Notes: generated from the sequence alone by a model not told the origin. Shown: positions 1 through 60,788, counted from the first letter of the stretch. The stretch is 64,000 nt of DNA from Verrucomicrobiota bacterium (GCA_018648805.1 JABGQM010000005.1:49433-113432), one strand, 5' to 3'. A program made the numbers and translations.

Positions 1-1
1 T

Positions 2-16408: not shown

Positions 16409-16461
16409 GGACTGCTCCCCTTCATGCCCTTCATGTCCTTCATGGTGAAGAATCGATCCAC

Positions 16462-27296: not shown

Positions 27297-27997
27297 AACT
27301 GGTAATCAAACCTCTCTATATCATCCCTATACAGCTTAGCGACTTGGTCAATTGTTGACGGACTGTTGTAGTAGTCATGGTAGTGGTTTCGATTCGTCGT
27401 GTTCCGCTTTTCCAATTCCAATGGCTCTCTCCCCATTGCCCTCAAGAGCCTGTTCATATCTCTATCGAAGTGTTCCACTTTTCCTGTAAAATCCAATTTG
27501 TCAGGGGTGAACAGGACTTGCGGCTGCCAATGATGATTGCCCTTGCTGACTGCAAACTCAACGAAGTGGTCAAATTCTGTTAGATCTTCGTTTGTCATCG
27601 TCCTCAACTGTGCAATGCGACGTGGCTGCGTCGTGAACATTTTCCAATTGGACACCATTCGATCCCAAGGATTACGAACAAAAGTAAACTTAAGATAACT
27701 GGCCAACTCCTTCTTGGGATTTCGCAATGAAGCCGATGATTTATTCTGAAACAATGCCCTTCGAATGGTAGTAGATGCTGCCTTTGGCACATCAAAATAC
27801 ATCAATTTACTCAACTCATCTATATAAACAAAGCTATAGCGATGAGCCGACACCGCTGGGCACTTGCACTTGGGGCATTCACAAGGAATATTCTCTCGTG
27901 CATACCGGTAATAGTACGGTGCACTCTTCTCCAATAGAAAATTGTTGTGCCATTTCTTCCCTAACTTCCAGCACGTTGATCGAATAGTCTCTTTCAT
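27293..27997 (-). CDS. Sulfotransferase family protein (Sulfotransfer_2-like), encoded in a low-GC island
   Basis: 5'-PSB-like motif YFDVPKAASTTIRRAL. 3'-PB-like FVRNPWDRMVSNW. Local GC is ~43-45% against >60% in the flanks. Confidence 0.55.
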   Translation of the reverse strand: MKETIRSTCWKLGKKWHNNFLLEKSAPYYYRYARENIPCECPKCKCPAVSAHRYSFVYIDELSKLMYFDVPKAASTTIRRALFQNKSSASLRNPKKELASYLKFTFVRNPWDRMVSNWKMFTTQPRRIAQLRTMTNEDLTEFDHFVEFAVSKGNHHWQPQVLFTPDKLDFTGKVEHFDRDMNRLLRAMGREPLELEKRNTTNRNHYHDYYNSPSTIDQVAKLYRDDIERFDYQF

Positions 27998-28091: not shown

Positions 28092-29480
28092 CTATCGCTT
28101 AAGCTTCTGGTATTTCCGCTTCTTGAGCACCAACCGCAGCTTGATCAGTGGAATGGCCGCGCTGGAGGTCAGGAACTTGATCACGAGGAAGCGCAGTCGC
28201 GGGAAGCGGCTGAGTCCAATCAAGCCCGAGATCACACGCTCCTTAATGACATCCTTCTTCGTGTGATCAGGCGTATCACGGTCGTAGGTCGGTACGGCCC
28301 TTCCTGCCTTCTTGAGGCGCGCCACGCGTAGTGGGGCGTTGACCCCTTTGCGCCGGGTCTGGATGCGATGCGTGCGGTAACTTGGATCGTCCGAGACGCA
28401 GATCGTGGTGATCGCACCGGCCTCAACCGCATCGTCCAGCGCCTTGGCCCCGCGCTCGGTTCGTACCAGGATGCGCGAGTGGCCTTTGAACTTGTAGTTG
28501 CCCTCGCGGTCGCGTGTCCAGGCATCGCTGACCGATAGATCTGAAAACTCGCCGGAGCCATCCAGACAGGTCTGGCAGCGCGGCGGCATGTAGAGCGAGA
28601 TCAGGTAGTTGTAGGCACCATCCTTGTAGTTGGAGTAGTGCATGTCGCGGATGGTGTCGTTCTTGAGCAGGGCACGCATCTTGCCCGGCCATTCGCCACC
28701 GCGAAACTCGAAGCCGTTGATGTCATCCCGCCCCAGGTGCTTGGTCTTCAGCAGGTCGGTGACCACCTCCGGTTCGAGTGAGCCACCGCAGAAGAGACCG
28801 ATGGCCAGATGAATCTTGCCCGCCAGTTCAGGGCAGGCTTCCTGCATCAGGCGGTAGCCATGCATCTGGCAGGGCAGGGCGGCCAGAGCAAAGCGGCCCT
28901 GCTCGCGTCGCAGCAGGGCGAAGACCTCGTTGACCGGAATGATCATGTAGCGTGAGCCCTGGCTCTGCAGCAGCTCGGTGCGCGTGCGGGCAATAAAGGC
29001 TTCGCCGCGCCATGGCTGGTCCGGCTTCATACGCGTCACGATGCAGCCATCCACGACCTTGTGCTCCAGCAGATCGGCCAGCAGTCCCGTGATAATGCCG
29101 CCGCCCGCGCCGCGTGCCTGAATCTCCGGGTCGGTCGACTTGCCGACAAATGTCTCACGCACATGTCCGTCGAACGAATCGGTGTCGTGGTCATGTCCAA
29201 ACGTGATCTGGGTGAGGTGTTTGTATTCCACCGTGCCGCCCGGACAGGTCTTGGTGCACAGCCCGCAGTCGATGCACGCGTCCTCATCAATCACCGGGTA
29301 GAGATCGTCACCCATCGTGATGGCGCCCGTCGGGCAGACCCCCGCACAGGTCCCGCAGCGGGTGCAGAGGGTCTTGTCCGTGAACGCGATACTGAGATGG
29401 TCCGGGGAAATTGCCATGCGCGCAAGCAAACCCGATGCACCATACGCAGTCAAGGGGAAAGGCTCCTGTGCGTTTGCCAT
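28092..29480 (-). CDS. Coenzyme F420 hydrogenase/dehydrogenase beta-subunit (FrhB)-like protein with two N-terminal 4Fe-4S ferredoxin motifs
   Basis: CTRCGTCAGVCP and CIDCGLCTKTCP clusters precede an FrhB-like body. Start chosen at MANAQEP (ATG 29480..29478). The track's longer N-terminus is read through the upstream inverted repeat. Confidence 0.6.
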   Translation of the reverse strand: MANAQEPFPLTAYGASGLLARMAISPDHLSIAFTDKTLCTRCGTCAGVCPTGAITMGDDLYPVIDEDACIDCGLCTKTCPGGTVEYKHLTQITFGHDHDTDSFDGHVRETFVGKSTDPEIQARGAGGGIITGLLADLLEHKVVDGCIVTRMKPDQPWRGEAFIARTRTELLQSQGSRYMIIPVNEVFALLRREQGRFALAALPCQMHGYRLMQEACPELAGKIHLAIGLFCGGSLEPEVVTDLLKTKHLGRDDINGFEFRGGEWPGKMRALLKNDTIRDMHYSNYKDGAYNYLISLYMPPRCQTCLDGSGEFSDLSVSDAWTRDREGNYKFKGHSRILVRTERGAKALDDAVEAGAITTICVSDDPSYRTHRIQTRRKGVNAPLRVARLKKAGRAVPTYDRDTPDHTKKDVIKERVISGLIGLSRFPRLRFLVIKFLTSSAAIPLIKLRLVLKKRKYQKLKR

Positions 29481-29504
29481 GCTCTTTCCGACCAGGGGGA
29501 GATT

Positions 29505-29610
29505 CAACGCCCAACAACCAACGCCCAACAACCAACTTCCAAGGGAAGACGAACGTTCTGTGCCTCCCTACTTGGATGTTGGGCGTTGGATGTTGGATGT
29601 TGGAGGTTCA
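29505..29610. repeat. Long imperfect inverted repeat (predicted stem-loop) with nested small palindromes, in the divergent intergenic region
   Basis: Left arm caacgcccaacaaccaacgcccaacaaccaac contains a 15-nt direct repeat. Right arm ggatgttgggcgttggatgttggatgttgg pairs with it at ~21/23 positions. The loop contains cttcc-aag-ggaag and the perfect palindrome gaacgttc. Confidence 0.5.
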
Positions 29611-29716
29611 GTTTTCCTTACTGTTCTTCCCGCACCACGTGTGGTCTATTCCTTTTGCACACGGCGAAAATTTCTCGCAAAGCCCTCTGCTTTGCGACAG
29701 GGTAACTATCTTCAGC

Positions 29717-32254
29717 ATGAAATCTACGCCTGACAGCCTGCACTCTGACGCGACGCGCCCTGCCTCTGTGGGGTATCGGCTCAGCATGGTGCCGGGACTC
29801 CTCGGTAGCGCTTGGCTGATCGCGTGGACCTGGGCCTGGAACCAGCGTTACGAGCTGCGCACCGGATACGACAAGACCAGCGACCTGCTGGTCGCTGTGC
29901 CCACGCCGCGACTCTGGATCATCGTCATGGCGGCCCTCGGGCTGGCCGGTCTGTTGTGGCTCGTGGCGCGGCACTGGCCCATCGATACGCGTGCGCGCAC
30001 GCTGCGCCGCTGTCGCGTGGTCTTGACCGTCTTTGCGCTGCTCTCGCTTCCGTTTGGTCTGCTTTCCCGCACCCTCGCCCCCGACGGGCTCGGGCTCGGC
30101 ATGCTCTGGCATATCGGACTGCCCGTGGTGGCCCTGGCGGCACTGGTGGCGCTGGTCGCCCTGCTCCTGCCGCTGCTGGAAGGGCGGAGGGGGACGGTCC
30201 CATCCGGGCGCCACCGCTATCGTCTATGGATCTTCTTCTTTATTGCCGTGCACCTGCCCTCGCTCTGGTTTGCACGCCCCTGGGAGAGTGACCGTTTCTA
30301 TCGCCACCGCCACCTCGGTGGCGATGAGCCGCGCTACCTTCTCATGACGCATAGCCTGGCCCAGGACCGTGATTTCAATCTCCTGAACAACTACGTGGAG
30401 AATCACCGCGACCGCTACATCTGCTGGACCAATCCGTACAACGACCCCGGTGATGCCGCTTACGCTAGCCGTGCCGTGAAGTGGGGCGCCGATGCACCGC
30501 ATTCCACCCCGGAGTACTGGCAGGGGCGGCGCTACGGAATCGAGCGATTGGGGATGCCGCTGCTGATCGCCCCCGCCTACAAGATCGGACTCAAGTGTGG
30601 TCAGCGGCAGCGCTATGGCGTGGTCCTCATGTTGAACCTGGTGCTGGTCTTCAGCATGGCCAACATCTACCTCTTTGCCGCGCAACTTGGCGTCGCGCAC
30701 GGGGCCGCCCTGCTCGCCGCGCTCGGCGCCGGTCTGAGTGCCCCGCTGTGTCTCTATGGCGTGTCGGCCTACACCGAGCCGGTCAGTGCCGCCCTGATCA
30801 TCTTCTGTCTGCGCATGATCCACGCCTTCCGCGCCCGACGCCTCGAGGGGGGGATGCCGGCGCTGCTCCCGCTCCTCAGTTTTGCCGTCGGCCTGGCCTA
30901 TCTGCCCTGGGTGCATGAGAAGATGATTCCCTTGGCCCTGTTCCTCGGGCTCTGTTTCATCCTGGCCGCCCGTCCGCGCTGGCGCACCCTACTGCCCATC
31001 GCGCTCGCACTCGCGCTCAGTTTCGCGCTGCAGGGCCGCTATTACTGGCTGCTCTACGGCCAGGTCACCCCGGCGCACGTCCACGGCCACTCGTTCAGTG
31101 CCGCCGCCCTGTTCAGAGAGGGGCTCTGGGGACTGCTGCTCGACCAGAAGCGGGGCGTCATGCCGGCGGCCCCCTGGGTACTTGCCGGAGGGGTCGGTCT
31201 GGGGATCTGGTTCCGCCGTCAGTGGCGCTTTGCTGTGGCACCGGCCGTCATGGTCGTGGCCTTTCTGCTCATGACCGGGGCCTTTGGCGGCTGGTATGGC
31301 GGCGGATCGGCCCAGCCACGCTACCTGCTCAATATCTTGCCGATCCTGGCGGTTGGTGTGGCCGTGGCGTGGGCGCACGGCCGCCGCCCGTTGCGCGGGC
31401 TGATCCTGGTGACGGTTCTACTCGGCATGGCCCAGGGCATCAACGCCGTGCTGACCCCTGACTTCCTTGTCTGGCACCGCGCGCCCTTCCTGCGCGATCT
31501 CTATCCTTGTGTGTTCAAGCTCGATCCGGTGGAGTGGATGACGATCACCGCCTGGATGGTCGCCCTGCTCTGGCTGGGTGTGGGACTGCCGCAGTGGCCC
31601 CGGCGCAAGAGCCTGGCGGTGATCCCCGCCTGCTGCTGCCTCCTGATCATGGGCGGCTCTGTGTGGCGCTTCCACAAGAGTACGCGCCCCACGATTGCCG
31701 TCCAGAACCCCGCCCTTCTCTCGAGCTTCTACCGTGACGACCTCCGCTTTGCGACCTTCAACAAGCGCATCATGATGCGCCGCTGGGAACGGGCCTATTC
31801 GGCGCAGCAGACCCCCGACACGGTTATGGGGGCCCGCACCCAGTATGAGAACAAGGTGTCAGGCCACTGCAGCGTGGTTCAGGACCCCACGGCCGAGGGA
31901 GGTGCTGCAGCGCGCTGGGAGGGTGAGGCCCACAGTGACTGGCTGCCGCTTACCGTGGGTCCCATCCTCTCGCTCTATGAAGGCGACTACCGTGCCACGT
32001 TCCATCTGCAGGTGCGTGGCCGTGCGGTCGAGGAGACGCAGCCCCTCACCGTGCGGCTGGTGGTCAGTGCGGGTGGCGTCATTTTCAATAGCACCGTTCT
32101 TGAACCGAAGTCATTGACCGGCGACTGGGCCGACTATCAGCTCCCCTTTACGCTCGCCACCCCCGTGCGTGGCGTGGACATGTCGGTCCAGGTGGTGGGC
32201 GGCGGCACGTTGCAGATGGACCGTGTTCAGCTGGATTATCTTGTGCTGCCCTGA
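29717..32254 (+). CDS. Large polytopic membrane protein (putative GT-C-like) with a C-terminal beta-sandwich domain
   Basis: ATG at 29717. The track's 29411 start runs through the inverted repeat. Many TM helices across ~560 aa. C-terminal domain ...YEGDYRATFHLQVRGRAVEETQPLTVRLVVSAGG...MDRVQLDYLVLP. Confidence 0.45.
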   Translation: MKSTPDSLHSDATRPASVGYRLSMVPGLLGSAWLIAWTWAWNQRYELRTGYDKTSDLLVAVPTPRLWIIVMAALGLAGLLWLVARHWPIDTRARTLRRCRVVLTVFALLSLPFGLLSRTLAPDGLGLGMLWHIGLPVVALAALVALVALLLPLLEGRRGTVPSGRHRYRLWIFFFIAVHLPSLWFARPWESDRFYRHRHLGGDEPRYLLMTHSLAQDRDFNLLNNYVENHRDRYICWTNPYNDPGDAAYASRAVKWGADAPHSTPEYWQGRRYGIERLGMPLLIAPAYKIGLKCGQRQRYGVVLMLNLVLVFSMANIYLFAAQLGVAHGAALLAALGAGLSAPLCLYGVSAYTEPVSAALIIFCLRMIHAFRARRLEGGMPALLPLLSFAVGLAYLPWVHEKMIPLALFLGLCFILAARPRWRTLLPIALALALSFALQGRYYWLLYGQVTPAHVHGHSFSAAALFREGLWGLLLDQKRGVMPAAPWVLAGGVGLGIWFRRQWRFAVAPAVMVVAFLLMTGAFGGWYGGGSAQPRYLLNILPILAVGVAVAWAHGRRPLRGLILVTVLLGMAQGINAVLTPDFLVWHRAPFLRDLYPCVFKLDPVEWMTITAWMVALLWLGVGLPQWPRRKSLAVIPACCCLLIMGGSVWRFHKSTRPTIAVQNPALLSSFYRDDLRFATFNKRIMMRRWERAYSAQQTPDTVMGARTQYENKVSGHCSVVQDPTAEGGAAARWEGEAHSDWLPLTVGPILSLYEGDYRATFHLQVRGRAVEETQPLTVRLVVSAGGVIFNSTVLEPKSLTGDWADYQLPFTLATPVRGVDMSVQVVGGGTLQMDRVQLDYLVLP

Positions 32255-32290: not shown

Positions 32291-33187
32291 ATGGGGGTCA
32301 TGCAGACGAGGACCCACAACACGATTGACCGTGATGCGCCGCAGGAAGAGCTGCCCGTGGTAGTCTATACGCGTGACCGGTTTCAACGGCTCGGATGGCG
32401 TGTATGGAGGTTGATGTTTCATGACCTCGTGCGGTCACGCGGCCTTATCTGGCGTCTTTTTGTTCGCAGTTGGTCGGCCCAGTACCGCCAGTCCTGGATG
32501 GGGTATGTATGGGCCATCGTGCCGCCCGTAGTGGCTGCTGTGGCCTTCTCGTTTGCCGTCCGCCACAGGGTTCTACGCGTGGGACCCACGCCCATTCCCT
32601 ACGTCTGCTACGCCCTGTGGGGCATGACCGTCTGGCAGTTGTTCACCGGGATCTACAACTCATCCTCGGGTGTTCTCAAGGGTGCCAGCCAGATGATCTC
32701 ACGCATCAACTTTCCCAAGGATGCTCTCGTGTTTGCCTCTATCGGGCAGCCGCTTTTCACCTTTCTTATTCGGCTGGTTGTTGTGTTTCTGGTTTTCGGC
32801 TTTAAGGGCGTCATGCCCGGTTGGACCGCTTTGCTTGCCCCCTTTGCGTTGATTCCCCTTGTACTGATCGCTCTGGGTATGGGCATGATCATGGCCGTGG
32901 TCTCAGTGGCAGGCTCGGATATACGCCGGGCCTTCGGGGCGTTTCTTAACTTCGGTATGCTGCTGACCCCCGTGATCTATCCGCCGCCGGTCTCGTGGCC
33001 ATCCGCTGCCGTGAACGTTGTTAACCCGCTCAGTCCGGTGTTGTCGGTGTCACACAGTCTGCTGCAGGGCGCCCCCATCACAACCCCCGTACTTTACCTG
33101 GCGGCGTGGATCTTCGGGTTGCTGATGTTTGGGTGTGGCTGGCGGATCTTTCGAATGGCGCTGCCACGCATTGCGGAGAGATTCTGA
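32291..33187 (+). CDS. wzm: ABC-2 type polysaccharide exporter permease (Wzm/TagG/KpsM-like)
   Basis: VRSRGLIWRLFVRSWSAQYRQSWMGYVWAIVPPVVAAVAFSF matches the ABC-2 permease N-terminal signature. Six predicted TM helices. Sits immediately upstream of the ATPase. Confidence 0.75.
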   Translation: MGVMQTRTHNTIDRDAPQEELPVVVYTRDRFQRLGWRVWRLMFHDLVRSRGLIWRLFVRSWSAQYRQSWMGYVWAIVPPVVAAVAFSFAVRHRVLRVGPTPIPYVCYALWGMTVWQLFTGIYNSSSGVLKGASQMISRINFPKDALVFASIGQPLFTFLIRLVVVFLVFGFKGVMPGWTALLAPFALIPLVLIALGMGMIMAVVSVAGSDIRRAFGAFLNFGMLLTPVIYPPPVSWPSAAVNVVNPLSPVLSVSHSLLQGAPITTPVLYLAAWIFGLLMFGCGWRIFRMALPRIAERF

Positions 33188-33188
33188 T

Positions 33189-34388
33189 ATGCGCAACGAC
33201 GTGTTAGTTGAGGTGAACGGCATCGGCAAGAAGTTTTGTCGATCCCTCAAGCGCGCCATGTTCTATACCGGCGTTGACGTCATGTGCGGCGTGGTTAACC
33301 GCGTCCCGCGCGGCGATCGTCTGCGCAAAGAGGAGTTCTGGGCGCTCGACGATATATCCTTCGCGCTACGCCGTGGCGAATGTCTCGGGTTGGTTGGGCC
33401 CAACGGCTCGGGCAAGACCACGCTCTTGCGTATCCTGAACGGCATTATCAATCCGGACACAGGGTCGGCCACGGTGCGTGGCAGCACCGGTGCCCTGATC
33501 CATCTGGGTGCGGGATTTCACCCCACGCTCACAGGCCGTGAGAACGTCTATATCAGCGGTGCCATTCGCGGTATGTCACATCGTGAGGTAGACGCCCGGT
33601 TCGATGAGATCGTCGAGTTTGCCGGCGTCGGTGAGTTTATTGATATGCCCATACAGCACTACAGTGCCGGGATGTTCGTGCGGCTGGGATACTCCGTGGC
33701 GGCTCACATTGATCCCGATGTGTTGCTGATGGATGAAGTACTCGCCGTGGGTGATGCCGAATTCAAGTCGAAGTGCCTTGATCATCTGGCCCGTAAGATC
33801 GAGGGTGGATGCACGCCTGTTTTTGTTAGTCATTCCATGGCCAGCGTGGCTGAGATCTGTACGCGGGTGATCGTGCTCGCCAAGGGGGGCATTGTATTCG
33901 ACGGCGATGTGGATGCGGGGATTGCGGCGTACCAGGAGGAACTGTCGCGACATCGTTGGTCCGATATGGAGCATGCAGGGGGGAGCGGCCCGATTCGCGT
34001 AGAGGAGCTCCGGCTCCTGTCGCCCACGGCCACCACGGGCGTACCGATGGCGCTGGGGCTCGAGCTCTCCTCGGCTTCACCGGCCGGTCGACTACGTGTT
34101 GAGTTGGCCCTGCAGTCGGCCCGCTACGGTCCCGTGGCGGTCATGCGCTCTCACCCCGTAGATGCACCGTCACTCGGGCAGGTGCTTCCGATGCAGGTGC
34201 GCGTGGCTGAGAATCCACTCTTGCCTGGCTATTACCTGATTGTAGCACACGTGGTGGATGATGCCACCGGACGCGTTGTATCGCGGCATGCCGCCCAGCT
34301 TCCCTTCCGCGTCGCTCCGGGCGGCGACGGCTACGGTGCCTCCAAAGGGCTGTTGGATTTGGGTGAAACGTGGAGTGCGGCGGTATAG
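33189..34388 (+). CDS. wzt: ABC transporter ATP-binding protein (Wzt/TagH-like) with a C-terminal ~150-aa beta-sandwich carbohydrate-binding domain
   Basis: ATG at 33189 lies 2 nt after the wzm stop. Walker A GPNGSGKTT, signature YSAGMFVRLG, Walker B LLMDEVLAVGD. A C-terminal extension (GGSGPIRVEELRLL...FRVAPGG) has the layout of Wzt C-terminal glycan-binding domains. Confidence 0.75.
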   Translation: MRNDVLVEVNGIGKKFCRSLKRAMFYTGVDVMCGVVNRVPRGDRLRKEEFWALDDISFALRRGECLGLVGPNGSGKTTLLRILNGIINPDTGSATVRGSTGALIHLGAGFHPTLTGRENVYISGAIRGMSHREVDARFDEIVEFAGVGEFIDMPIQHYSAGMFVRLGYSVAAHIDPDVLLMDEVLAVGDAEFKSKCLDHLARKIEGGCTPVFVSHSMASVAEICTRVIVLAKGGIVFDGDVDAGIAAYQEELSRHRWSDMEHAGGSGPIRVEELRLLSPTATTGVPMALGLELSSASPAGRLRVELALQSARYGPVAVMRSHPVDAPSLGQVLPMQVRVAENPLLPGYYLIVAHVVDDATGRVVSRHAAQLPFRVAPGGDGYGASKGLLDLGETWSAAV

Positions 34389-34406
34389 TTCAAGGCGGAT
34401 GCACGA

Positions 34407-35138
34407 ATGATTCTTTCAGACCGGTTTGTCTTTATCCACTATCCAAAGACGGGTGGGTCTTTTGTGCGTTCCGTACTCAAGCGTGTGCTGGATGCGGCGA
34501 AGATAGCCTACACGGAAGGCGGGATGCATGATACCTGCGCGGATATTCCCGTGGCGTATCACGGCGTCCCCGTTGTGACATGCGTACGCAACCCGTATGA
34601 CATTCGTGTGTCAGAGTACAAGTATCGGTGGTGGGCAACGGATGCCTCCCCAGCGCTGCAAGAGCAGTTTCTCTCCTATTATGCGCACTACCCGGAGCTG
34701 TCATTTGAGGAGTATGTCCGAGCATGGCACCACTGTACGGAGATATCGGTGATCTCTGAAGGGATCAACCCCTACATGGCCAGCATGGGACAGTACAGCA
34801 AGCGCTTCATCAAGACGTTCGCCCGGGACCCTTCAGCGGTGTTCCTGGCCATGAGCAACGCGTTCATGCAGAGCGACGCGTTTCACGCGGCCTTGCATGA
34901 TGTGACCTATCTGCACACGGACTCCCTGAATGCTGATCTGTATGCGTTTCTGTGCAAGCAGGAATTCTCACGGAGGCATATCCGGTTTGTGAGAAGCGCC
35001 GCGAAGATCTTGCCGCCGGGAGGTCATCAGAGGGACGGCCAAGACCATTGGCTGAGTTACTATACGCCCGAGTTGAAGGCTGAGGTCCGGGCGCAGGAAC
35101 GACTGCTCTTTCGTATGTTTCCGCGCTATGATGTATAG
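34407..35138 (+). CDS. Sulfotransferase family protein (carbohydrate sulfotransferase-like)
   Basis: FVFIHYPKTGGSFVRSVL is a PAPS 5'-phosphosulfate-binding loop of PKTGGT type. VRNPYDIRVSEYKY is 3'-PB-like. Confidence 0.55.
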   Translation: MILSDRFVFIHYPKTGGSFVRSVLKRVLDAAKIAYTEGGMHDTCADIPVAYHGVPVVTCVRNPYDIRVSEYKYRWWATDASPALQEQFLSYYAHYPELSFEEYVRAWHHCTEISVISEGINPYMASMGQYSKRFIKTFARDPSAVFLAMSNAFMQSDAFHAALHDVTYLHTDSLNADLYAFLCKQEFSRRHIRFVRSAAKILPPGGHQRDGQDHWLSYYTPELKAEVRAQERLLFRMFPRYDV

Positions 35139-35156
35139 GTGTATCATGGGAGATGG

Positions 35157-35972
35157 ATGATGATATGTACGGATGATTTTGTGTTTGTTCACTTTCCCAA
35201 GACGGGAGGAACCTTTGTGGCCGATGTGCTGCAGCGTGTTCTGTCGCAGACGGGGCGGCGCTACGAGGAGGAGGAGATGCACGCCCGTGCTACCGGTATC
35301 CCTTCCGTGCACCAGGGCAAACCCATTCTGGCCTGTGTGCGCAGCCCTTATGACCTGAAAGTCTCTCAATACCAGTATCGCTGGTGGAAGAGTCGCGAAT
35401 CCAAACCGATCCTGAAAGAGCTTCACAAGCGCTGTCCGGGTTACCGGAACTGGACATTCGAGGAGTACGTCGTGGGGTGGGACCAGTTTGTACCGTTGGC
35501 GTTGAGCAACGCCGCGCGCAATCCGTTTACGCGGACGGTGGGTCAGTACTCTCAGAAGTTCATCGATTTTTTCTTCCGTGCGCCAGATGCATTCTTTGCT
35601 GACCTCACGGAGGAGATGCTCCTGGGGGATCTGGAGCAGGCGATGTTTCCCGTCACCTTCCTTACCACGGAGACGTTGAACGATGGTCTGTGCGATTTTC
35701 TGCTCCGCCATGGGTTCAAGGAGGAAGAGGTGGCATTCATTCGAGACGAGAAGCGGATTCTGCCGCCTGGGGCGGTACGCAGCCGGAACGATCGATGGCA
35801 ACAGCACTACACGCCCGGCCTCAAGGCATACGTCCGCCAGCAGGAGCGGTTGATGTTTAAGCTCTTCCCTGAGTTCGAAGAGCGCACCCCGTCCACGGGA
35901 TCGTCCGGTGTGTCGGATGCCCCCGAACCAACGGATGCCATGCACGGGAACCCGTCGACGGTGGCTTCGTGA
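35157..35972 (+). CDS. Sulfotransferase family protein, tandem paralog of 34407..35138
   Basis: FVFVHFPKTGGTFVADVL and VRSPYDLKVSQYQY. ATG at 35157 is preceded by GGGAGA. The track's GTG at 35139 is an alternative start. Confidence 0.55.
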   Translation: MMICTDDFVFVHFPKTGGTFVADVLQRVLSQTGRRYEEEEMHARATGIPSVHQGKPILACVRSPYDLKVSQYQYRWWKSRESKPILKELHKRCPGYRNWTFEEYVVGWDQFVPLALSNAARNPFTRTVGQYSQKFIDFFFRAPDAFFADLTEEMLLGDLEQAMFPVTFLTTETLNDGLCDFLLRHGFKEEEVAFIRDEKRILPPGAVRSRNDRWQQHYTPGLKAYVRQQERLMFKLFPEFEERTPSTGSSGVSDAPEPTDAMHGNPSTVAS

Positions 35973-37492
35973 TATGGCGCTGCATGCATCCACGGCTCGC
36001 TACCGTTCTGCTGTGCATGCTGGTTGCGGCTCTGTATGGGGCTAGCCGAGCAGGTAATCTTGACCGCCCCCTCGTGTACGAGGGGTACTCCTATCTGCAG
36101 CCGGGACTCTCCCTTTTCAATACCGGGCACTATGCCCTGGATGCCGGGGTCCTTGATCCGGATGCCAACACGTTTCACAAGCCGCCCTTAACATTTCTCC
36201 TGCTGGGAGCAAGTGCCCGGTGCCATGCCGATCCGGTCAGAGGCGCCCGGCTGGTTCCCATGCTCGTGGGGTTGTGGGTGGTCCTGGTGCCCTTGCTCGC
36301 CACCGGATCTGTCGTGCCGTCCCTGGTCATTCTCATGTCGCCATTTTTCTACGCGGCAGCAGGCCATATCCAAACCGACCCCATTGTCGGTCTTCTCGGG
36401 TGCAGCCTCGTGACATGGGGGATGTTGCGTCTGTGGGAGCGGCGTGAGGTACTGCGGCTGGATACGGCGGCCCAGTGGTTGATTGCCGTGGGTCTGTCGA
36501 CTCTCTGGCTGGGCAAGCTGGAAACAGCGGTACTGGCGTCTGCCGGGGTGGGGCTGCTCAGCCTGGCGCTCCCACGTGGCATGCGCCGCCAAAGCATTGT
36601 CCGGCTCCTCCAGGTATCACTCTGCGGCATGCTTCTCTTTATCCTGGTGACCTTTCTGTTGGGCCTGACCAACGCTAAGTTGTTTGATGAATCGGTTGGT
36701 CGTGTGGTGCGGACCCTCTATACGCAGACCGACGCGATTAGCCGTAGTAATGAGGCCGCGGGTGGTACGGTCGTGGCCCGGCATAGTATTTTCAAGATGT
36801 TCGTACGCTATCGGTTGCCGTTGCTGTTTGCTCTGGCCCTGCTGCCGGCTCTCATAAGCCTGCCGCGTCATAGGGCGCGGGTGCCGCTGACACTTTTGCT
36901 GGTGGGCGCGGCGGTCGTTCTGGCCGTACCGTATATGGTGCTGGGAATACGGGGAGAGGGGTATCCCCGCTACTTTCTGACGGCCTTCATTCCGTTGCTT
37001 CTTCTGCAAGGGAAGAGTCTGAGCGTGATGTCACGCAAGGTGCGATGGAGCATATCAGCCGTCATCCTTGTGGTGGCAGCGGTGGGCTTGCTTCCTCGCA
37101 CCTGCGCACTTATGGCCTCGCCGGGCAGTCCCACGGCCTGGTATGGAACCGTGGGCACCCGCCAGGCCGTCAACCGGCTCCAGGAGGTCACGCGCGAAGG
37201 CGACCTGGTCATGGGGCCCGGTGCGGCATTGTTTTACCTCCACAACAGGCAGAAGCTCACGCTCGAATCGTTCATCCACTCACAAGCGCGTACCTCTCAG
37301 GCAGTCGCGCTGGGGAGCCAGGTGCAGGCGGCCGTAGTCTTTCCTCGCATGGGGATTCACCATTCCCGCACACCTGTGGGGTGCGCCCTCGCATCGCTGC
37401 TGGCCCGGGATCCGGTCATCGAGAAGGTGGGGAGCTGGCGCCTGATTTATGCTCCCCGGCAGCGTATCGCCACGGGCTCAACGCTTGACTAG
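35969..37492 (+). CDS. Polytopic membrane protein, GT39/ArnT-like (putative GT-C glycosyltransferase)
   Basis: GTG at 35969 overlaps the upstream stop; ATG at 35984 (MHPRLATVLLCMLVAALYG) is an alternative start. More than 10 TM helices, with a short C-terminal soluble part. Confidence 0.45.
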   Translation: MIWRCMHPRLATVLLCMLVAALYGASRAGNLDRPLVYEGYSYLQPGLSLFNTGHYALDAGVLDPDANTFHKPPLTFLLLGASARCHADPVRGARLVPMLVGLWVVLVPLLATGSVVPSLVILMSPFFYAAAGHIQTDPIVGLLGCSLVTWGMLRLWERREVLRLDTAAQWLIAVGLSTLWLGKLETAVLASAGVGLLSLALPRGMRRQSIVRLLQVSLCGMLLFILVTFLLGLTNAKLFDESVGRVVRTLYTQTDAISRSNEAAGGTVVARHSIFKMFVRYRLPLLFALALLPALISLPRHRARVPLTLLLVGAAVVLAVPYMVLGIRGEGYPRYFLTAFIPLLLLQGKSLSVMSRKVRWSISAVILVVAAVGLLPRTCALMASPGSPTAWYGTVGTRQAVNRLQEVTREGDLVMGPGAALFYLHNRQKLTLESFIHSQARTSQAVALGSQVQAAVVFPRMGIHHSRTPVGCALASLLARDPVIEKVGSWRLIYAPRQRIATGSTLD

Positions 37493-37507: not shown

Positions 37508-38302
37508 ATGATGGCGGTCAGGAATAGAACAATGCGCAACTGTATGATACTTGGAGCGGGACGCAGCGGTACCAGCTTGGCGGCGGGATGTCTCGCGTCG
37601 GCCGGTTATCACATGGGTGACGACCTGATTGAACCGTGTGAGACGAATCCGCAAGGGTTCTTTGAATGCCGGCGTATCAATGCTTTGAATGAGGATATCC
37701 TGCGTGCCGTGGATGCACGCGGCGCGCCCCGCTACCTGGGGCTATTCGGCCGTCAGCGGTTGCGGCACGACCAGTACTGGTTGGCCTGTCTCTCGCCGCG
37801 GACCACGTTTCGGCCTGACCCGGCCATCCGGGAGCGTATTCGAGACTGCTTGTCACGACGGCCTTACTGCTTCAAGGATCCCCGTTTCTGCTATACACTA
37901 CCCGTCTGGCAGCCCGAGCTAGGGCGTGCCGCCTTCCTGTGTGTCTTTCGCCATCCGGGCGCCACAGTGCGGAGTACGCTGCGGGAGTGCGAGCGGATGG
38001 ATTACCTGGGTGACGTGCACATGACCGAACGATGGGCCTGGCAGCTCTGGACCTGTATGTACCGTGCGGTCCTGGCCATGCCGGACCGCGACCGCACATG
38101 GCTGTTTGTGCACTACAACCAGATACTGGAGGGGGATGCCTTCTCGCGCGTGGCCGAGCACCTCGATGTGACGATTCAATCGGACTTCGTTAATCCCGCG
38201 TTGAGTCGCACCCCTACGATGCCCATCACCTCTTCCTCCGTGGCGCGGCTCTACGATGCACTGTGTGAACGGGCGGGCTATGACAGGAGTAGAGACAGAT
38301 GA
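37508..38302 (+). CDS. Sulfotransferase family protein (Sulfotransfer_3/Stf0-like), a third sequence family
   Basis: ILGAGRSGTSLAAGCL is a P-loop-like 5'-PSB motif. Size 264 aa. No similarity to the other sulfotransferase families at the motif level. Confidence 0.55.
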   Translation: MMAVRNRTMRNCMILGAGRSGTSLAAGCLASAGYHMGDDLIEPCETNPQGFFECRRINALNEDILRAVDARGAPRYLGLFGRQRLRHDQYWLACLSPRTTFRPDPAIRERIRDCLSRRPYCFKDPRFCYTLPVWQPELGRAAFLCVFRHPGATVRSTLRECERMDYLGDVHMTERWAWQLWTCMYRAVLAMPDRDRTWLFVHYNQILEGDAFSRVAEHLDVTIQSDFVNPALSRTPTMPITSSSVARLYDALCERAGYDRSRDR

Positions 38303-40770
38303 GTGAGACGGATCGAGTTGGGCCTGACCATGAGATGCCGGTCGTCTCTGTGGTGATTCCGTGTTTCAACGCGGCCGCAACCATCTTGGAAACGCTGGAA
38401 AGTGTGACGGCTCAAACGTATGCGTCGTGGGAGGCGGTCATCATCAATGACGGATCGACGGATGATACCACGGCTCTGGTTGAGGGGGTTCAGGCCGGTG
38501 ATGATCGCATTCACCTGATCAACGTGCCTCTGAATGAGGGGTTGTCCTCCGCCCGCAACAGGGCGATTCGTGCGGCGCGAGGGGCGTTCATCAAGTTCCT
38601 GGATGCCGATGACCGGTTGACCCCCGATGCGCTGGGCCTGATGGTCGACCGGGCTCGTGAGCGTCCGGAATGTGCGGGTGTCTATGCGTCCTGGATACAC
38701 TGCTATCCGGACGGACGGCAACGCGCGTGGCCCGTGGCACAGGAGCACGCACTCTCCTTTGAGACGCTGGTGAGTGGCAATCGACTCCATATTCAGGCCG
38801 TCATGCTCCGCAAGACGGTGATTGAGGAGGCCGGCCTGTTCTTTGATGAGGGCTTTGTGGACTATGCACAGGGCGCGGAAGACTGGGATGTGTGGATTCG
38901 TCTCTACCGCTGTGGCTATCGGTTGGCTCGTCTGAATACACCCGTGGCACTCTACCGTGAACGGGCAGACAGCATGAGTCACGATCATCTGTCGCAGTGG
39001 CGCTCGGGGTGTCACACCCTTGATCTTGCCTTTGTGCCTGATGCACGTTGTCCGAAGGCACTGCCCGAGTTCGCGGAGGGGCCTCCGTCGGTGACGAAGA
39101 CGCAGTCGCAGCTGGCATGGAACACTGAACATCTCAAGGGCTGCATCCTCGAGGGGGACGTTGGCGCTGTCGAGGGGCTGATTGAGGCTATCCGTGTGAA
39201 GGCGTTGCCCTTCCCCAGTTCGGTTGAATTGGCGCATGCCATGGTGTTTGCGCTGAAAAGTGAGCCCGAGGGTTTCGCTCGGCTGACAGCAGACTGGCCC
39301 AACCGTTATCGGTGCCTGCTCTGCGCCTTGCGCGCCATCCGCCGCGCCACGATGTCGCCCTTCTATGTGGCCGAGTTCATGGCGGCATGGTTGGCCTGTG
39401 TGCCGCACGACATTGATCCGCGGCCGATGCTCGCCGCCGCCCTCCGCCATGGGGGAGTGTCCTGGCTGCAATACCTTAGGCGCCGAAGCCACTGGCGTGA
39501 GCTGGAACGTAACCTGTGCCGTGAACGTCCGTCCGAACGCCGTGTGGCCATCGTGTGCGACTGGGTACCCTACCCGGTGCGGTCGGGGGATAACAAGCGT
39601 ACCGCCGAGATGATCGACGTGCTGCGGCAGAAGGGGTGGTGTGTCCATCTCGTGCTGACCCGCCCCCTGACCCGCAAGAGCCAGAAACGGCTCTGCCTGA
39701 CACATGCCGATGCCTTGCATGTCTTCTTTGGCGGCAACCTGCTCGGTCACGCCTTTCGGTTTGCCGTACGCAAGGTCGATGGCCTGCTCTTTCATCTCAA
39801 ATTGCCGCCGCTGCGCGACACGGTCAGCCGGTTGCTTGGTCGCCAACGCCACCTCGCGGTCGCCCTGTTCAGCCAGATGCCGACCTACCAGTCCGGGTTC
39901 AAGGAATACCTGGCCAAACTGGCGATCCGTCACGAATGGAATGCGGTCGTCATCAACTACCAGTGGCTCTACCCCTCAATCGAAGCGCTGCCCCCATCCG
40001 TTGTAACCCTCCTCGATACGATCGACCTCCAGCATAAGCGTGTCGAACAGTTCGAATCGCGCGACCTGAACGGCGTGCACGCCATCACACGCGCGGAAGA
40101 AGCGGAAACCATGCGTGGGTTCGATGCCATCCTTGCCATCCAGGAAGAGGAGGCCGGCGAAATACGTCAGATGTGTCCCGGACACGCCGTGATCACCGTC
40201 GGAACCAGCTCCCCGCCGCCGCCGCCACGGGATGTGCCCCTGCGCCCCTATTCACTGTTTTACGTGGGCGGTGCCAATGCGGCCAATATCGATGGCCTGC
40301 GGCACTTCCTGGATCGTTGCTGGCCCCGCATCTGTGCGGCCCGGCCGGATGCCGAGCTGCGCGTCTGTGGGCATGTCTACCAGGCGTTTCTTGGAGAATC
40401 ACGCGATAGGGTCACGTTCCTGGGCCATGTCGATGATGTCGAGCTGGAGTACGCACAGGCGGCTGTGGTGATCAATCCGATCTGGGTCGGCACCGGCCTG
40501 AAGATCAAGACCGTCGAAGCCCTGGCGCGCGCCAAACCGCTGGTCACGACCCAAAAGGGGATTGAGGGGATGTCCGGCAATCCCGACGCGGCATGCCGGG
40601 TTGTCGATGGGGATGAGGCCTTTGTTGATGCCGTCGTGCAACTTGTCGCGACCCCGTCAGCGTGTCGTGACCTGGCCCGGGAAGCGGCGACCTACCGTGA
40701 TCAGTTCTTGTCACCCGATGTGGTATACCGCGAGCTATTCGCCTTTCTTGATGAAAATTCTAGTCGATAA
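38299..40770 (+). CDS. Bifunctional glycosyltransferase: N-terminal GT2 domain plus C-terminal GT4 (group 1) domain (WbdA-like multidomain polymerising GT)
   Basis: GT2 segment VVSVVIPCFNAAATILETLESVTAQTY...IINDGSTDDT...FLDADD. C-terminal GT4-like segment SLFYVGGANAANIDGL...VINPIWVGTGLKIKTVEALARAKPLVTT. Confidence 0.65.
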   Translation: MSETDRVGPDHEMPVVSVVIPCFNAAATILETLESVTAQTYASWEAVIINDGSTDDTTALVEGVQAGDDRIHLINVPLNEGLSSARNRAIRAARGAFIKFLDADDRLTPDALGLMVDRARERPECAGVYASWIHCYPDGRQRAWPVAQEHALSFETLVSGNRLHIQAVMLRKTVIEEAGLFFDEGFVDYAQGAEDWDVWIRLYRCGYRLARLNTPVALYRERADSMSHDHLSQWRSGCHTLDLAFVPDARCPKALPEFAEGPPSVTKTQSQLAWNTEHLKGCILEGDVGAVEGLIEAIRVKALPFPSSVELAHAMVFALKSEPEGFARLTADWPNRYRCLLCALRAIRRATMSPFYVAEFMAAWLACVPHDIDPRPMLAAALRHGGVSWLQYLRRRSHWRELERNLCRERPSERRVAIVCDWVPYPVRSGDNKRTAEMIDVLRQKGWCVHLVLTRPLTRKSQKRLCLTHADALHVFFGGNLLGHAFRFAVRKVDGLLFHLKLPPLRDTVSRLLGRQRHLAVALFSQMPTYQSGFKEYLAKLAIRHEWNAVVINYQWLYPSIEALPPSVVTLLDTIDLQHKRVEQFESRDLNGVHAITRAEEAETMRGFDAILAIQEEEAGEIRQMCPGHAVITVGTSSPPPPPRDVPLRPYSLFYVGGANAANIDGLRHFLDRCWPRICAARPDAELRVCGHVYQAFLGESRDRVTFLGHVDDVELEYAQAAVVINPIWVGTGLKIKTVEALARAKPLVTTQKGIEGMSGNPDAACRVVDGDEAFVDAVVQLVATPSACRDLAREAATYRDQFLSPDVVYRELFAFLDENSSR

Positions 40771-41953
40771 TGGAAACTATCAGCTCGTGAATCTTGGCGA
40801 TATCGCCATGATGGATGTGTTTGTGCAGCGGATCATGGCGATGTTCGGCAATCCCGAGATCATGCTGGTCACGCGCAACCCGGATGCGGCAGCACGTCAG
40901 TTTCCAGGTATAACGCCGGTCGATCCCCATCTCCTGGTGCCTTCTGCCCGGCCCCTGAACCGGTTGGCTCGGTGGCGCCGGAAGGCGGGAGTACGGGTAG
41001 GGGTACCGCGGCCAGCGCCAACGGAAATCCCACTCATTGATGGCGTGGATGCTGTGCTGTTTTCCGGGTGTGGGTTTCTCAATGATCATTTTTCTTTCGG
41101 GGCGGCCATGCGCCTGCGTCGTTTGTTGTACGCCGCGAAGCGGGGCAAGGTTGTGGCCCTGTTTGGACAGGGGGTAGGGCCGGTCAGTGCACCGGCCCTC
41201 AGGCAGGCCATGGCTGCAACATTGCCGCTGGCTGATCTCATCGGCGTCAGGGAGCGGGTGGAAGCGCCGCGTATTCTGCGTGAGGTAGGTGTCGCGCAAG
41301 AGAGGATTGCCGTGGTCGGAGATGATGCCACGGAGCTTGCCTTCAGGCGATGTCGCGAGCACCCGGCAGCGCTCCGTATCGGCGTCGGTGTACGGGCGGC
41401 ACCCTACGCTGGAATCGGTAAGGCCGAAGCGCATCTGCTTGCGGACTCACTCGCGCGGGTGCTGGGCGAGCATGGCGCGCAAGCGGTGCCTATTCCGATC
41501 ACCTTCCAATCAGAATTCTCGGATCGCACGACGCTGCAGCGCCTGCTGGCATGCAGCGTCCCTGGCATGGGGGACATGACCGTGGATCGGATCATTGACG
41601 ACGTCGGTAGCTGTGGTGTTGTGGTCTCCGGCACGTACCATGCTGCCGTTTTTGCCCTGGCCCAGGGCATACCGGTGGTCGGAATCTATGCCAACGACTA
41701 TTACCGGACCAAGTTGCACGGCCTGTTCGATATGTATGGGTGGTCGGAGGAAAACCTGCTGCACGTTCAGCAGGCCGACTTCTCCGGCTTGCTGGCCACG
41801 CGTGTTCGCGATCTGCTGATCCACAAAGACCGCTTCACGACGCCCCTGCGCGATGCCGCCCGGCACCAGATCCACGCCTCGCGGGATAGCTACAGTCGCT
41901 TGGCCGTCTTGTTGGGGGGCGCGCCTCTGCCTCCGTTCCGCAAGGCCGTGTAA
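40751..41953 (+). CDS. Polysaccharide pyruvyl transferase family protein (second copy)
   Basis: ATG at 40751, in frame with the track ORF 40562 and overlapping the upstream gene by 20 nt. N-terminus MKILVDNGNYQLVNLGDIAMM is a typical family start. Confidence 0.6.
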   Translation: MKILVDNGNYQLVNLGDIAMMDVFVQRIMAMFGNPEIMLVTRNPDAAARQFPGITPVDPHLLVPSARPLNRLARWRRKAGVRVGVPRPAPTEIPLIDGVDAVLFSGCGFLNDHFSFGAAMRLRRLLYAAKRGKVVALFGQGVGPVSAPALRQAMAATLPLADLIGVRERVEAPRILREVGVAQERIAVVGDDATELAFRRCREHPAALRIGVGVRAAPYAGIGKAEAHLLADSLARVLGEHGAQAVPIPITFQSEFSDRTTLQRLLACSVPGMGDMTVDRIIDDVGSCGVVVSGTYHAAVFALAQGIPVVGIYANDYYRTKLHGLFDMYGWSEENLLHVQQADFSGLLATRVRDLLIHKDRFTTPLRDAARHQIHASRDSYSRLAVLLGGAPLPPFRKAV

Positions 41954-43845: not shown

Positions 43846-45294
43846 GTGTGTCTCTTGGTCTTCAGTTCACTAGTCTTTCTTCTTCTGTTCCTCCCCGCCT
43901 TCCTTTTGCTGTACTATGCCTGTCCCTCCCGCTGGCGCAATATGGTGGCCCTTGCCGGAAGCATGGTGTTCTATGCTTGGGGCGCCCCTCGCTTCATTCT
44001 TGTGCTGTTGGGGTCCTGTCTACTGGACTATCTCTGTGCACGGAAAATAGAGAGTGCGCCCCACCGCACACGCCGCCTGATTATCCTGGCGGTGGTGTTC
44101 AACGTTCTGGTCCTGGTATTCTTTAAATATGCCAACTTCTTTGTGGCTCAGCTCGACTCCCTGCTTGGCGCCGCGGCGCATGGCGGGGCGATTCCCTGGA
44201 AGCCGATCGCGCTGCCCATCGGAATCTCGTTTTTCACGTTTCAGAAGATTAGTTATCTGATTGACGTCTACAGAGGGCGCGTCGAACCGGCCCGGTCCTA
44301 CCGTGACTACGTGCTGTATGTGAGCCTCTTCCCGCAACTCATTGCCGGTCCCATCGTGCGCTATCACGACGTGGCGGATCAGATCCGGTCGCGGATCTGT
44401 TCATCCGCCATGATTTCGGACGGGTTTCGTCGCTTTACTATCGGGCTGGCTAAGAAGGTCCTGATCGCCAACCATGTCGGCGAAGTGGCCGATACCATGT
44501 TTAACGGGCCTCCTCTCCAGATGTCATGTGTGCAGGCCTGGGTGGGGCTGCTCTGCTACAGCTTTCAGATATACTTCGATTTCTCGGGATATTCGGATAT
44601 GGCTATCGGCTTGGGGCGCTTGCTGGGCTTCAAGTTTCTCGAGAATTTCAACCGTCCCTATATGGCCGCGAGTTTCACTGACTTCTGGCGCCGCTGGCAC
44701 ATCTCGTTGTCAAACTGGATGCGGGAGTATCTTTATATCCCGCTTGGGGGCAATCGCGTGTCGCACCTGCTCCAAGTCAGGAACCTTTGGATCGTGTTTC
44801 TGGTCTCAGGATTCTGGCATGGCGCCAGTTGGAACTTTATTGCATGGGGGGCGTATCACGGGTTCTTCCTCTCACTCGAGCGGATAACGTTTGTGCGTCG
44901 AGTCCATGACGCCCTGCCGCGCTTGGTACGCACGTTGGGCACTTTTGTCCTGGTCTCGATCGGCTGGTGTTTCTTCCGTGCCGAGGACCTCTCCGGGGCG
45001 TGGGCCTTCCTCATGCGGCTTTTTGCTTGCGGCAATACGGGGCAGGGCTTGTATCCCACTCGTCTGCTCTACTATATTGTCTCGCCACGTATTGCGGTGG
45101 CATTCGTGGCCGCCTGCCTGCTCAGTTTCTGGCCCGCTCGCGCGACAAAGCTTGACCTGGAGTGCTCCGGGGGTGCCCAGTGGGGCCTCGCTAGGCTTGT
45201 CGGCGCCAACCTGTTTACGATCGTGCTTCTGGCTTTCTCGCTAGGGGCTTTGGCTACCCAGGCGTTTAACCCGTTTATATACTTCAGGTTTTAG
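43846..45294 (+). CDS. MBOAT family membrane-bound O-acyltransferase (AlgI/DltB-like), copy 1
   Basis: FFTFQKISYLIDVYRG, YFDFSGYSDMAIGLGRLLGF, and FWRRWHISLSNWMREYLYIPLGGNR with the conserved His. The start may be the TTG/GTG a few codons in (MVFSSLVFLL). Confidence 0.75.
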   Translation: MCLLVFSSLVFLLLFLPAFLLLYYACPSRWRNMVALAGSMVFYAWGAPRFILVLLGSCLLDYLCARKIESAPHRTRRLIILAVVFNVLVLVFFKYANFFVAQLDSLLGAAAHGGAIPWKPIALPIGISFFTFQKISYLIDVYRGRVEPARSYRDYVLYVSLFPQLIAGPIVRYHDVADQIRSRICSSAMISDGFRRFTIGLAKKVLIANHVGEVADTMFNGPPLQMSCVQAWVGLLCYSFQIYFDFSGYSDMAIGLGRLLGFKFLENFNRPYMAASFTDFWRRWHISLSNWMREYLYIPLGGNRVSHLLQVRNLWIVFLVSGFWHGASWNFIAWGAYHGFFLSLERITFVRRVHDALPRLVRTLGTFVLVSIGWCFFRAEDLSGAWAFLMRLFACGNTGQGLYPTRLLYYIVSPRIAVAFVAACLLSFWPARATKLDLECSGGAQWGLARLVGANLFTIVLLAFSLGALATQAFNPFIYFRF

Positions 45295-48392: not shown

Positions 48393-48396
48393 ACGC

Positions 48397-60682: not shown

Positions 60683-60788
60683 ATTGGTATAGTGGATCCC
60701 CAAATAGCAGGTAGGTAGCCTGATACCCCGTGGTCATCCCGACGACGGGGAACTTGAACCAGTAAACACTAATATGGAGAATCATAAC

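Follow-up and report, generated by a model that had tools for sequence, protein, structure and literature searches.

A Verrucomicrobial Wzm/Wzt operon with sulfotransferase genes and a basic Wzt pocket: a candidate for glycan export gated by terminal sulfate

Can a polysaccharide exporter read sulfate at the end of its glycan? The question is raised by an operon in a 64,000-nucleotide stretch of DNA from Verrucomicrobiota bacterium (GCA_018648805.1, JABGQM010000005.1:49433-113432; hereafter the window, with positions counted from its first letter), in which the genes of a Wzm/Wzt ATP-binding cassette (ABC) exporter are followed directly by two sulfotransferase genes. Export gated by a cap that the carbohydrate-binding domain (CBD) of Wzt reads is a textbook form of quality control in the assembly of O-antigens and S-layer glycans. 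Every Wzt CBD studied reads a terminal cap that gates export, and the known caps are methyl, methyl-phosphate and beta-Kdo (PMC9445017, PMC11231755). Sulfate is mentioned neither in the paper on cap recognition in Aquifex (PMC9445017) nor in that on the Klebsiella pneumoniae O4/O7 terminators (PMC11231755). The original prediction for this locus, made from the DNA sequence, proposed sulfation as a plausible terminating or recognition modification. It named methyl and phosphomethyl as the known caps and omitted beta-Kdo (PMC11231755). Our tentative answer is that the operon directs the synthesis of a sulfated cell-surface polysaccharide by the ABC-transporter route, with a CBD that reads a sulfated non-reducing-end sugar.

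The region from 29.4 to 42.0 kb forms a single tightly packed operon on the + strand, with gaps of 0-36 nucleotides (nt) or 4-nt overlaps. It encodes, in this order, a GT-C-like membrane protein, Wzm, Wzt, the sulfotransferases ST-A and ST-B, a 507-amino-acid (aa) membrane protein, the sulfotransferase ST3, a GT2-GT4 protein and a pyruvyltransferase. The four genes on which the prediction was built (wzm, wzt and the two genes downstream) were found where it had placed them, tightly packed on the + strand, and the GT2-GT4 fusion that it had reported at 38299-40770 is present by Pfam. A promoter scan returned a number of sites not above that in shuffled sequence. The features of the operon, and a fourth sulfotransferase gene on the other strand, are as follows.

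29411-32254, + strand: GT-C-like membrane protein of at most 947 aa, directly 5' of wzm, probably starting downstream of 29411 (NCBIfam LA_3751/2 putative glycosyltransferase, 2.7e-7; about 11 hydrophobic segments).
32291-33187, + strand: wzm, ABC-2 type polysaccharide exporter permease (NCBIfam galactan Wzm, 1.8e-6; KpsM, 9e-5).
33189-34388, + strand: wzt, 399 aa, an ABC nucleotide-binding domain (NBD) plus a C-terminal CBD.
33189-33940, + strand: NBD of Wzt, aa 1-250 (ABC_tran, 1e-18; TagH/Wzt NCBIfam, about 1e-50; Aquifex Wzt 6amx/8dku, 5e-55).
33942-34388, + strand: C-terminal CBD of Wzt, aa 252-399, a divergent Wzt_C domain.
34284-34289, + strand: codons R366-H367 of Wzt, in the alignment column of Aquifex Trp362, the lid over the methyl cap; translation verified.
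34407-35138, + strand: ST-A, sulfotransferase of 243 aa using 3'-phosphoadenosine-5'-phosphosulfate (PAPS), from a distant Sulfotransfer_2-like family.
35139-35972, + strand: ST-B, a paralogue of ST-A, 277 aa from GTG or 270 aa from the ATG at 35160.
35969-37492, + strand: multi-pass membrane protein of 507 aa, weakly GT-C-like (about 6 hydrophobic segments; NCBIfam LA_3751/2, 0.017).
37532-38302, + strand: ST3, Sulfotransfer_3-like sulfotransferase of 256 aa (PF13469, 2e-4, under the curated cutoff).
38299-40770, + strand: two-domain GT2 + GT4 glycosyltransferase, candidate polymerase (Glycos_transf_2, 3.5e-34, aa 17-145; Glyco_trans_1_4, 5e-19, aa 652-783).
40790-41953, + strand: CsaB-like polysaccharide pyruvyl transferase, an alternative anionic modifier (PF04230, 1.8e-23; TIGR03609 CsaB, 8e-17).
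27293-27997, - strand: fourth sulfotransferase, Sulfotransfer_2 (PF03567, 1.1e-20).

The identity of the Wzt NBD as TagH/Wzt-type is unambiguous, and it aligns to Aquifex aeolicus Wzt over aa 47-253 in the PDB search (5e-55). The product of wzm, whose stop lies 1 nt upstream of wzt, had no Pfam match and weak NCBIfam matches, indicating a divergent permease; it owes its name to its partner genes. A local hidden Markov model (HMM) made from the wzm genes of relatives matched wzm in all the loci compared.

We then analyzed the C-terminal extension of Wzt, about 148 aa long, which the original prediction had called a glycan-binding domain. In a direct scan the tail was unmatched by Pfam Wzt_C (PF14524) even at E=10, and the NCBIfam scan of the tail was also blank. 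Nevertheless, full-length Wzt homologues at about 50% identity bear PF14524, and 22 of the 26 aligned homologues of the extension match it individually. A profile made from the extension and 25 homologues matched the Aquifex Wzt CBD (6o14/8dky, 4e-10) and the Raoultella terrigena Wzt-C (5hno, 1e-3). Moreover, hhalign matched the five closest sequences, all without a Pfam match, to the remainder with 97.8% probability over 128 columns. The extension has a beta-sandwich (jelly-roll) fold like those of 2r5o, 5hno and 6o14, and the near-invariant C-terminal Trp of the family is kept (W144 of the fragment). As the homologue profile matches while the direct scan is blank, we place the extension in a divergent Wzt_C subfamily, with transitive membership; fold and profile carry this assignment jointly, because generic Ig-like sandwiches score similarly. 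The tail is thus homologous to the Wzt_C family, with a sandwich of the Wzt_C type, and this part of the prediction holds. We are confident that the CBD of this locus is genuine and that the pathway is an ABC-transporter-dependent one for a sulfated glycan.

In Aquifex Wzt, the pocket for the 3-O-methyl cap consists of L300, T346, A348 and W362, and the W362L substitution abolishes lipopolysaccharide (LPS) binding (PMC9445017). R366 of the window protein falls on W362 in two independent alignments (hmmalign and MAFFT L-INS-i), and its distances from the two flanking conserved motifs are those of Trp-lid homologues (17 residues from the preceding tyrosine of G-x-Y and 7 to the phenylalanine of F-x-V that follows). 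The aromatic lid over the Aquifex pocket is therefore replaced in the window CBD by an arginine. We counted the residues at the pocket positions in the 22-member clade of the window Wzt and in 98 other homologues.

W362 (lid) column: R in 21/22 of the clade; W in 51-55/98 and R in 14/98 of the others; R366 (followed by H367) in the window.
L300 column: R in 10/22 of the clade; mostly T, S, G or A in the others; A307 in the window.
T346 column: K in 14/22 of the clade; mostly S, G or T in the others; V352 in the window.
A348 column: L in 9/22 and V in 6/22 of the clade; mostly A, S or I in the others; H354 in the window.
V380 column (partner protomer): R or K in 16/22 of the clade; mostly G, N or A in the others; K386 in the window.

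As judged from the aligned columns, the cap pocket of the clade is remodelled from hydrophobic/aromatic to basic. The net charge of the whole CBD was uninformative, ranging from -7 to +2. Another arginine, R312 of the conserved 'LQSARYG' segment, was ruled out as a sulfate ligand, since in the alignment it falls in the Aquifex loop 302-308, a docking element for the hinge and H-loop helices of the NBD.

Nine loci of the clade, defined by a Wzt identity of at least 47% and a usable context, were examined for sulfation genes: the window, L001, L002, L009, L010, L037, L055, the P0009 locus and the cyanobacterial L089. All nine carry such genes within a few genes of wzt. In four, cysC-cysD-cysNC-wzm-wzt-ST3 form one operon (the P0009 locus; L009, 5714-12030; L037, 2464-8741; L055, 2484-8741). 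In L001 an ST-A-like gene lies 11 nt 5' of wzt and a Sulfotransfer_1-like gene just 3' of it; L002 has two sulfotransferases upstream of wzt and ST3 downstream, and L010 has two sulfotransferases. Including L091, described below, sulfotransferase genes stand directly 3' of wzt in the window, L001, L002, L009, L037, L055 and L091. We also observed that the cysC-cysD-cysNC relatives have their PAPS-synthesis module wired directly to the exporter, with its CBD, and to one sulfotransferase.

We next compared the neighbors of wzt between Arg-lid and Trp-lid exporters. The controls were 80 Wzt loci among the matches listed in a metagenome scan, sampled more or less at random and not the closest relatives; the Arg-lid lineages were selected without reference to sulfotransferases. 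Five Trp-lid loci (L094, L125, L133, L170 and L173) have a methyltransferase gene directly 3' of wzt, and in L092 an FrhB-pyruvyltransferase gene comes first, then a methyltransferase gene. The 26 aromatic-lid loci among the 80 listed have 71 neighbor open reading frames (ORFs), including at least 12 methyltransferases. Among these 71 ORFs there was no sulfotransferase family of two or more members, and the local sulfotransferase HMMs were unmatched. The Arg-lid lineages positive for sulfation genes are the window clade, L091, L095 (Sulfotransfer_3, 1.5e-18) and L113, in which an adenylyl-sulfate (APS) kinase gene comes right after wzt. In L091 a 410-aa Sulfotransfer_3 gene overlaps the wzt stop and is followed by genes for a PMT_2-like membrane protein, a GT2 enzyme and an ST3-like protein, in parallel to the window order; the PMT_2-like protein takes the same place as the window protein of 35969-37492, after the wzt-adjacent sulfotransferase. 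Altogether, sulfation genes accompany about 4/6 Arg-lid lineages versus 0/28 Trp/aromatic-lid ones, a difference that is suggestive rather than proof because the samples are small, the flanks often short and relatedness uncontrolled.

The Trp-lid loci had features of their own. Across unrelated metagenome loci, where wzt encodes a CBD with a Trp lid, the very next gene is usually one for an S-adenosylmethionine (SAM) methyltransferase; that of L125 has, in addition, a coiled-coil-like match to TPR_MLP1_2. The rule that the gene after wzt encodes the terminator may be general. In Escherichia coli O9a, the terminator gene wbdD lies directly 3' of wzt. Two loci encode an FrhB-like Fe-S domain fused to a pyruvyltransferase (912-924 aa), next to a methyltransferase and directly 3' of a Trp-lid wzt (L092, 11195-14849; L094, 11251-14974). 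Terminal pyruvylation may be another wzt-linked modification. The FrhB-like gene of the window is separate (28092-29531, - strand).

The two genes 3' of wzt had been predicted to encode paralogous PAPS-type sulfotransferases, and several lines of evidence support this. ST-A and ST-B are 40% identical (E 5e-70). Neither had a Pfam or NCBIfam match, the best being Sulfotransfer_1 at E 0.042, and a single-sequence PDB search with ST-A returned noise only. However, the profile of the ST-A family retrieved nothing but PAPS sulfotransferases from the PDB (1cjm, 4.6e-6), with the same motifs aligned, and 25 of the 42 family members match Sulfotransfer_2 (PF03567). The AlphaFold2 (AF2) model of ST-A has a mean predicted local distance difference test (pLDDT) score of 92.5, and its top 50 Foldseek hits in the PDB are all PAP(S)-bound sulfotransferases, although at template modeling (TM) scores of only 0.33-0.48.

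Both proteins have the 5'-phosphosulfate loop PKxGxT/S and the 3'-phosphate motif R-x-P-x(5)-S. In ST-A the 5'-phosphosulfate-binding (5'-PSB) motif is HYPKTGGS, and the 3'-phosphate-binding (3'-PB) motif RNPYDIRVS lies in VRNPYDIRVSEY; ST-B has motifs of the same types, FVHFPKTGGT and VRSPYDLKVSQY (3'-PB, RSPYDLKVS). The 42-member ST-A family conserves the PKTGG loop, a His and the RNPYDxxVSxY motif. T15, G16, R61, P63 and S69 are invariant or near-invariant columns among the 42 relatives and align with the motifs of SULT1A3. The putative catalytic base, H41, is kept in at least 90% of relatives and aligns with the His of K-x-H in SULT1 enzymes. As for ST3, its family has at least 750 relatives, most bearing PF13469, and the window protein is 45% and 42% identical to the products of the genes directly 3' of wzt in L009 and L002, respectively. 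ST-A, ST-B and ST3 are all small, single-domain proteins whose length is filled by the catalytic domain.

Genes of the ST-A and ST3 families also occur together elsewhere, in several unrelated clusters (L005, 5781-12414; L012; L027; a Phycisphaerae contig with P0128 and P0244), and some of the clusters with both families hold 5-6 sulfotransferases and no Wzt. The two families may work on the same motif, one sulfated at several positions.

These data can be assembled into the following model. The GT2-GT4 protein and other glycosyltransferases would assemble the glycan on a polyprenyl carrier on the cytoplasmic side, and it would be sulfated there from PAPS by ST-A, ST-B, ST3 and the Sulfotransfer_2 enzyme of 27293-27997. 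Wzm/Wzt would export it, the Wzt CBD recognizing a sulfated non-reducing-end sugar through a basic cap pocket (R366, H354, H367 and K386), so that only sulfated chains would be licensed for export. Three points of the model are inferred: sulfate as the ligand, its terminal position and its role in ending chain growth. The parts of the model deserve different degrees of belief. That the CBD recognizes a sulfate-bearing epitope appears somewhat probable, whereas it is doubtful that ST-A or ST-B adds this sulfate as a cap that strictly terminates the chain. Candidate suppliers of the recognized sulfate are ST-A and ST-B, which adjoin wzt here, and ST3, the partner conserved in relatives. The position of sulfotransferases next to wzt is no proof of a cap-forming role. 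The link between the clade and sulfation, the basic pocket and the Trp-lid/methyltransferase pattern make a sulfate-reading CBD more credible than adjacency alone would. The proposal of sulfation as a recognition modification is strengthened by the constant presence of sulfation genes, the basic pocket and the methyltransferases of Trp-lid loci, while that of ST-A and ST-B as the terminators is weakened.

Several observations weigh against a CBD that reads terminal sulfate or against ST-A and ST-B as the terminators. The pocket positions were mapped from alignments at 11-14% identity, and the clade loci, being mutually related, are not independent observations. Two Arg-lid lineages depart from the pattern, L093 having no sulfotransferase in its neighbor ORFs and L157 having wzt followed by a methyltransferase-GT2-WbsX fusion, with no sulfotransferase. 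The sulfotransferase conserved directly 3' of wzt in relatives belongs to the ST3 family, not to that of ST-A and ST-B. Relatives of ST-A are found at loci without wzt (L005, with multiple sulfotransferases; L007, cyanobacterial; and L008, from Cystobacter and secondary-metabolism-like), and Wzt lies within 8 kb in about 15 of 80 representative-genome loci of the ST3 family. The dedicated PAPS-synthesis genes of relatives point to a large flux of sulfate and not to a single group on each chain. No coiled-coil family was matched in the operon by the Pfam scan, no dedicated coiled-coil predictor having been run. Lastly, the sulfotransferases of the window number at least four, from three families, and they are accompanied by pyruvyltransferases, methyltransferases and MBOAT/AlgX pairs, two of each. 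Given so many modifying enzymes, sulfation is one decoration among many; a large share of it probably falls on internal residues, and the cluster could supply other caps. The other modifiers are the following.

15620-16483 and 48124-49170: methyltransferases (the window has Methyltransf_11 and FkbM types).
17808-18995 and 40790-41953: pyruvyltransferases.
43846-45294 with 47349-48392, and 49338-50774 with 50775-52019: MBOAT/AlgX O-acetylation modules.

As rules, an Arg lid as a sufficient predictor of sulfation is ruled out by L157 and L093, the ST-A family as a dedicated wzt partner by L005, L007 and L008, which carry the family without a Wzt CBD, and the ST3 family as an exclusive wzt partner by its low rate of association with Wzt.

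What other explanations would account for this gene arrangement? Sulfation might be bulk decoration, a possible though not a probable alternative, in which internal residues would be sulfated in each repeat, as they are in the sulfated exopolysaccharides of cyanobacteria, the CBD would read another terminus (methyl, pyruvyl ketal or unmodified sugar) and adjacency would reflect the packing of an operon for a cytoplasmic pathway. The number of sulfotransferases, their spread over three families and the tandem pair of paralogues, typical where several sites are decorated, are in keeping with this, as are the high flux implied by the PAPS-synthesis operons of relatives, the occurrence of the ST-A and ST3 families mostly without wzt, and the sulfotransferase genes known in cyanobacterial ABC-type exopolysaccharide (EPS) clusters (PMC8205485). 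The methyltransferases and pyruvyltransferases of the window could supply the cap. Bulk decoration leaves unexplained, however, why the lid Trp and three other pocket positions shifted to basic residues in a clade that always has sulfation genes, and why Trp-lid relatives have methyltransferases, not sulfotransferases. In addition, as far as their sequence was fetched, the loci L001, L002, L009 and L010 of the clade have no pyruvyltransferases.

The basic pocket and its association with sulfation genes would also suit a sulfation checkpoint without termination, the CBD binding sulfated backbone epitopes, so that correctly modified polymer is exported, and chain length being controlled in another way, such as a coupling of export to synthesis. 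No coiled-coil ruler or multidomain terminator was found in the operon, and L009, L037 and L055 show a single sulfotransferase with a PAPS-synthesis operon, both in line with such a checkpoint. We consider it improbable, as all characterized Wzt CBDs bind a non-reducing terminal cap in a small pocket (PMC9445017) and it is the homologous positions that are changed here. Most improbable of all is that the CBD is a structural or regulatory appendage without glycan specificity, or that the sulfotransferases act on a non-glycan substrate. The blank direct Pfam Wzt_C scan of the window protein and the ST-A relative in the Cystobacter locus could be cited for it. Against it, the domain is conserved across the clade, including the residues at pocket positions and the C-terminal Trp, and the sulfotransferase genes belong to an operon of glycosyltransferase and exporter genes in which start and stop codons overlap. 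We retain, tentatively as before, the reading in which the CBD recognizes a sulfated non-reducing-end sugar.

The wider cluster also contains an FrhB-like Fe-S protein, several GT2 and GT4 enzymes and at least five large GT-C-like membrane proteins. The GT4 C-terminal half of the GT2-GT4 fusion shares 68% identity with a GT4 protein encoded on its own in L001 (10297-11583), indicating that the fusion, or a split, is recent within the lineage. Six large multi-pass membrane proteins are encoded in the window (12877-15612, 20186-22816, 22813-24972, 24885-27296, 29411-32254 and 35969-37492), an unusual number for one glycan cluster. They are 507-947 aa long with 6-11 hydrophobic segments, and several have weak PMT_2, PTPS_related or LA_3751/2 matches (GT-C-like); they could be periplasmic glycosyltransferases, ligases or oligosaccharyltransferases. 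The glycan cluster is flanked by a 2803-aa FG-GAP/MBG/fn3 repeat protein (4362-12773, + strand) and a second FG-GAP protein (60774-62543, + strand), and in L001, the closest related locus, a giant FG-GAP/Laminin_G protein is encoded just 5' of wzm (1-4544). Such proteins may be glycosylated surface proteins tied to the pathway. A DDE transposase gene (DDE_Tnp_1, 1.9e-8; 45602-47239, - strand) lies between the two MBOAT/AlgX modules, where the local GC content drops to 0.54-0.57, and this segment may be the product of acquisition or rearrangement. Finally, a stand-alone nonribosomal peptide synthetase (NRPS)-like protein of 878 aa with adenylation, carrier and thioesterase domains (55290-57926, - strand) adjoins glycosyltransferases and may acylate the glycan.

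If a sulfate-reading CBD is confirmed, it will add a recognition chemistry beyond the three known caps and, with it, a class of terminator enzyme not known so far. At the level of residues, the hypothesis is that a lid Trp goes with methyl and a lid Arg with sulfate. By extension, PAPS-dependent sulfation would be a further class of non-reducing-end cap, read by Arg-lid Wzt CBDs with an Arg/Lys-lined pocket and spread over Verrucomicrobia/Kiritimatiellia, Planctomycetes, cyanobacteria and Nitrospirae, a generalization that we regard as rather unlikely at present. Sulfated polysaccharides have been described as scarcely known outside cyanobacteria (PMC8205485), and this locus adds to the evidence that they are encoded well beyond that phylum, which is of relevance to marine carbon and sulfur cycling and to the microbial production of heparin-like polymers. 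Should bulk decoration be the true explanation, the locus will represent a well-annotated but ordinary ABC pathway for a sulfated glycan.

How does the operon compare with known systems? Characterized terminators have a coiled-coil ruler (PMC11231755). In the polymannose systems of E. coli O9a and K. pneumoniae O3 (WbdD plus the Wzt carbohydrate-binding module), a kinase-methyltransferase with such a ruler attaches a methyl-phosphate cap (PMC3482155, PMC11231755), whereas the window neighbors are small PAPS sulfotransferases in which no ruler was seen, and the similarity between the CBDs is detectable by profiles only. Relative to A. aeolicus WzmWzt (6o14, 8dky, 8dku), whose cap is 3-O-methyl-Man/Rha, residues L300/T346/A348/W362 correspond to A307/V352/H354/R366 in the window, and the trap loop of the window protein is two residues shorter. 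In K. pneumoniae O12/R. terrigena and K. pneumoniae O4 (5hno), a complete sugar, beta-Kdo, serves as the cap, and a polymerase with a ruler attaches it through a glycosyltransferase domain. The synechan (xss) and cyanobacterial sulfated EPS clusters resemble the window in having several embedded sulfotransferase genes, with cytoplasmic PAPS-dependent sulfation before export (PMC8205485). Synechan differs in being Wzx/Wzy-dependent with internal sulfates, while the window system is Verrucomicrobial and Wzm/Wzt-dependent, with a CBD. A similar layout is that of Aeromonas salmonicida A450, where, by the published description, a 438-aa Wzt is directly followed by ORF19, with a sulfotransferase domain, WbbB and, later, an ArnT-like/GT-C-like protein (PMC4483657). 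Unlike in our proposal for the window, the published O-antigen structure there is without sulfate, ORF19 was left unexplained (PMC4483657), and the WbbB homologue may already supply a Kdo terminator. A sulfate-cap system may nonetheless account for this orphan sulfotransferase gene next to wzt, and A. salmonicida A450 is a culturable, genetically tractable organism whose gene order echoes that of the window.

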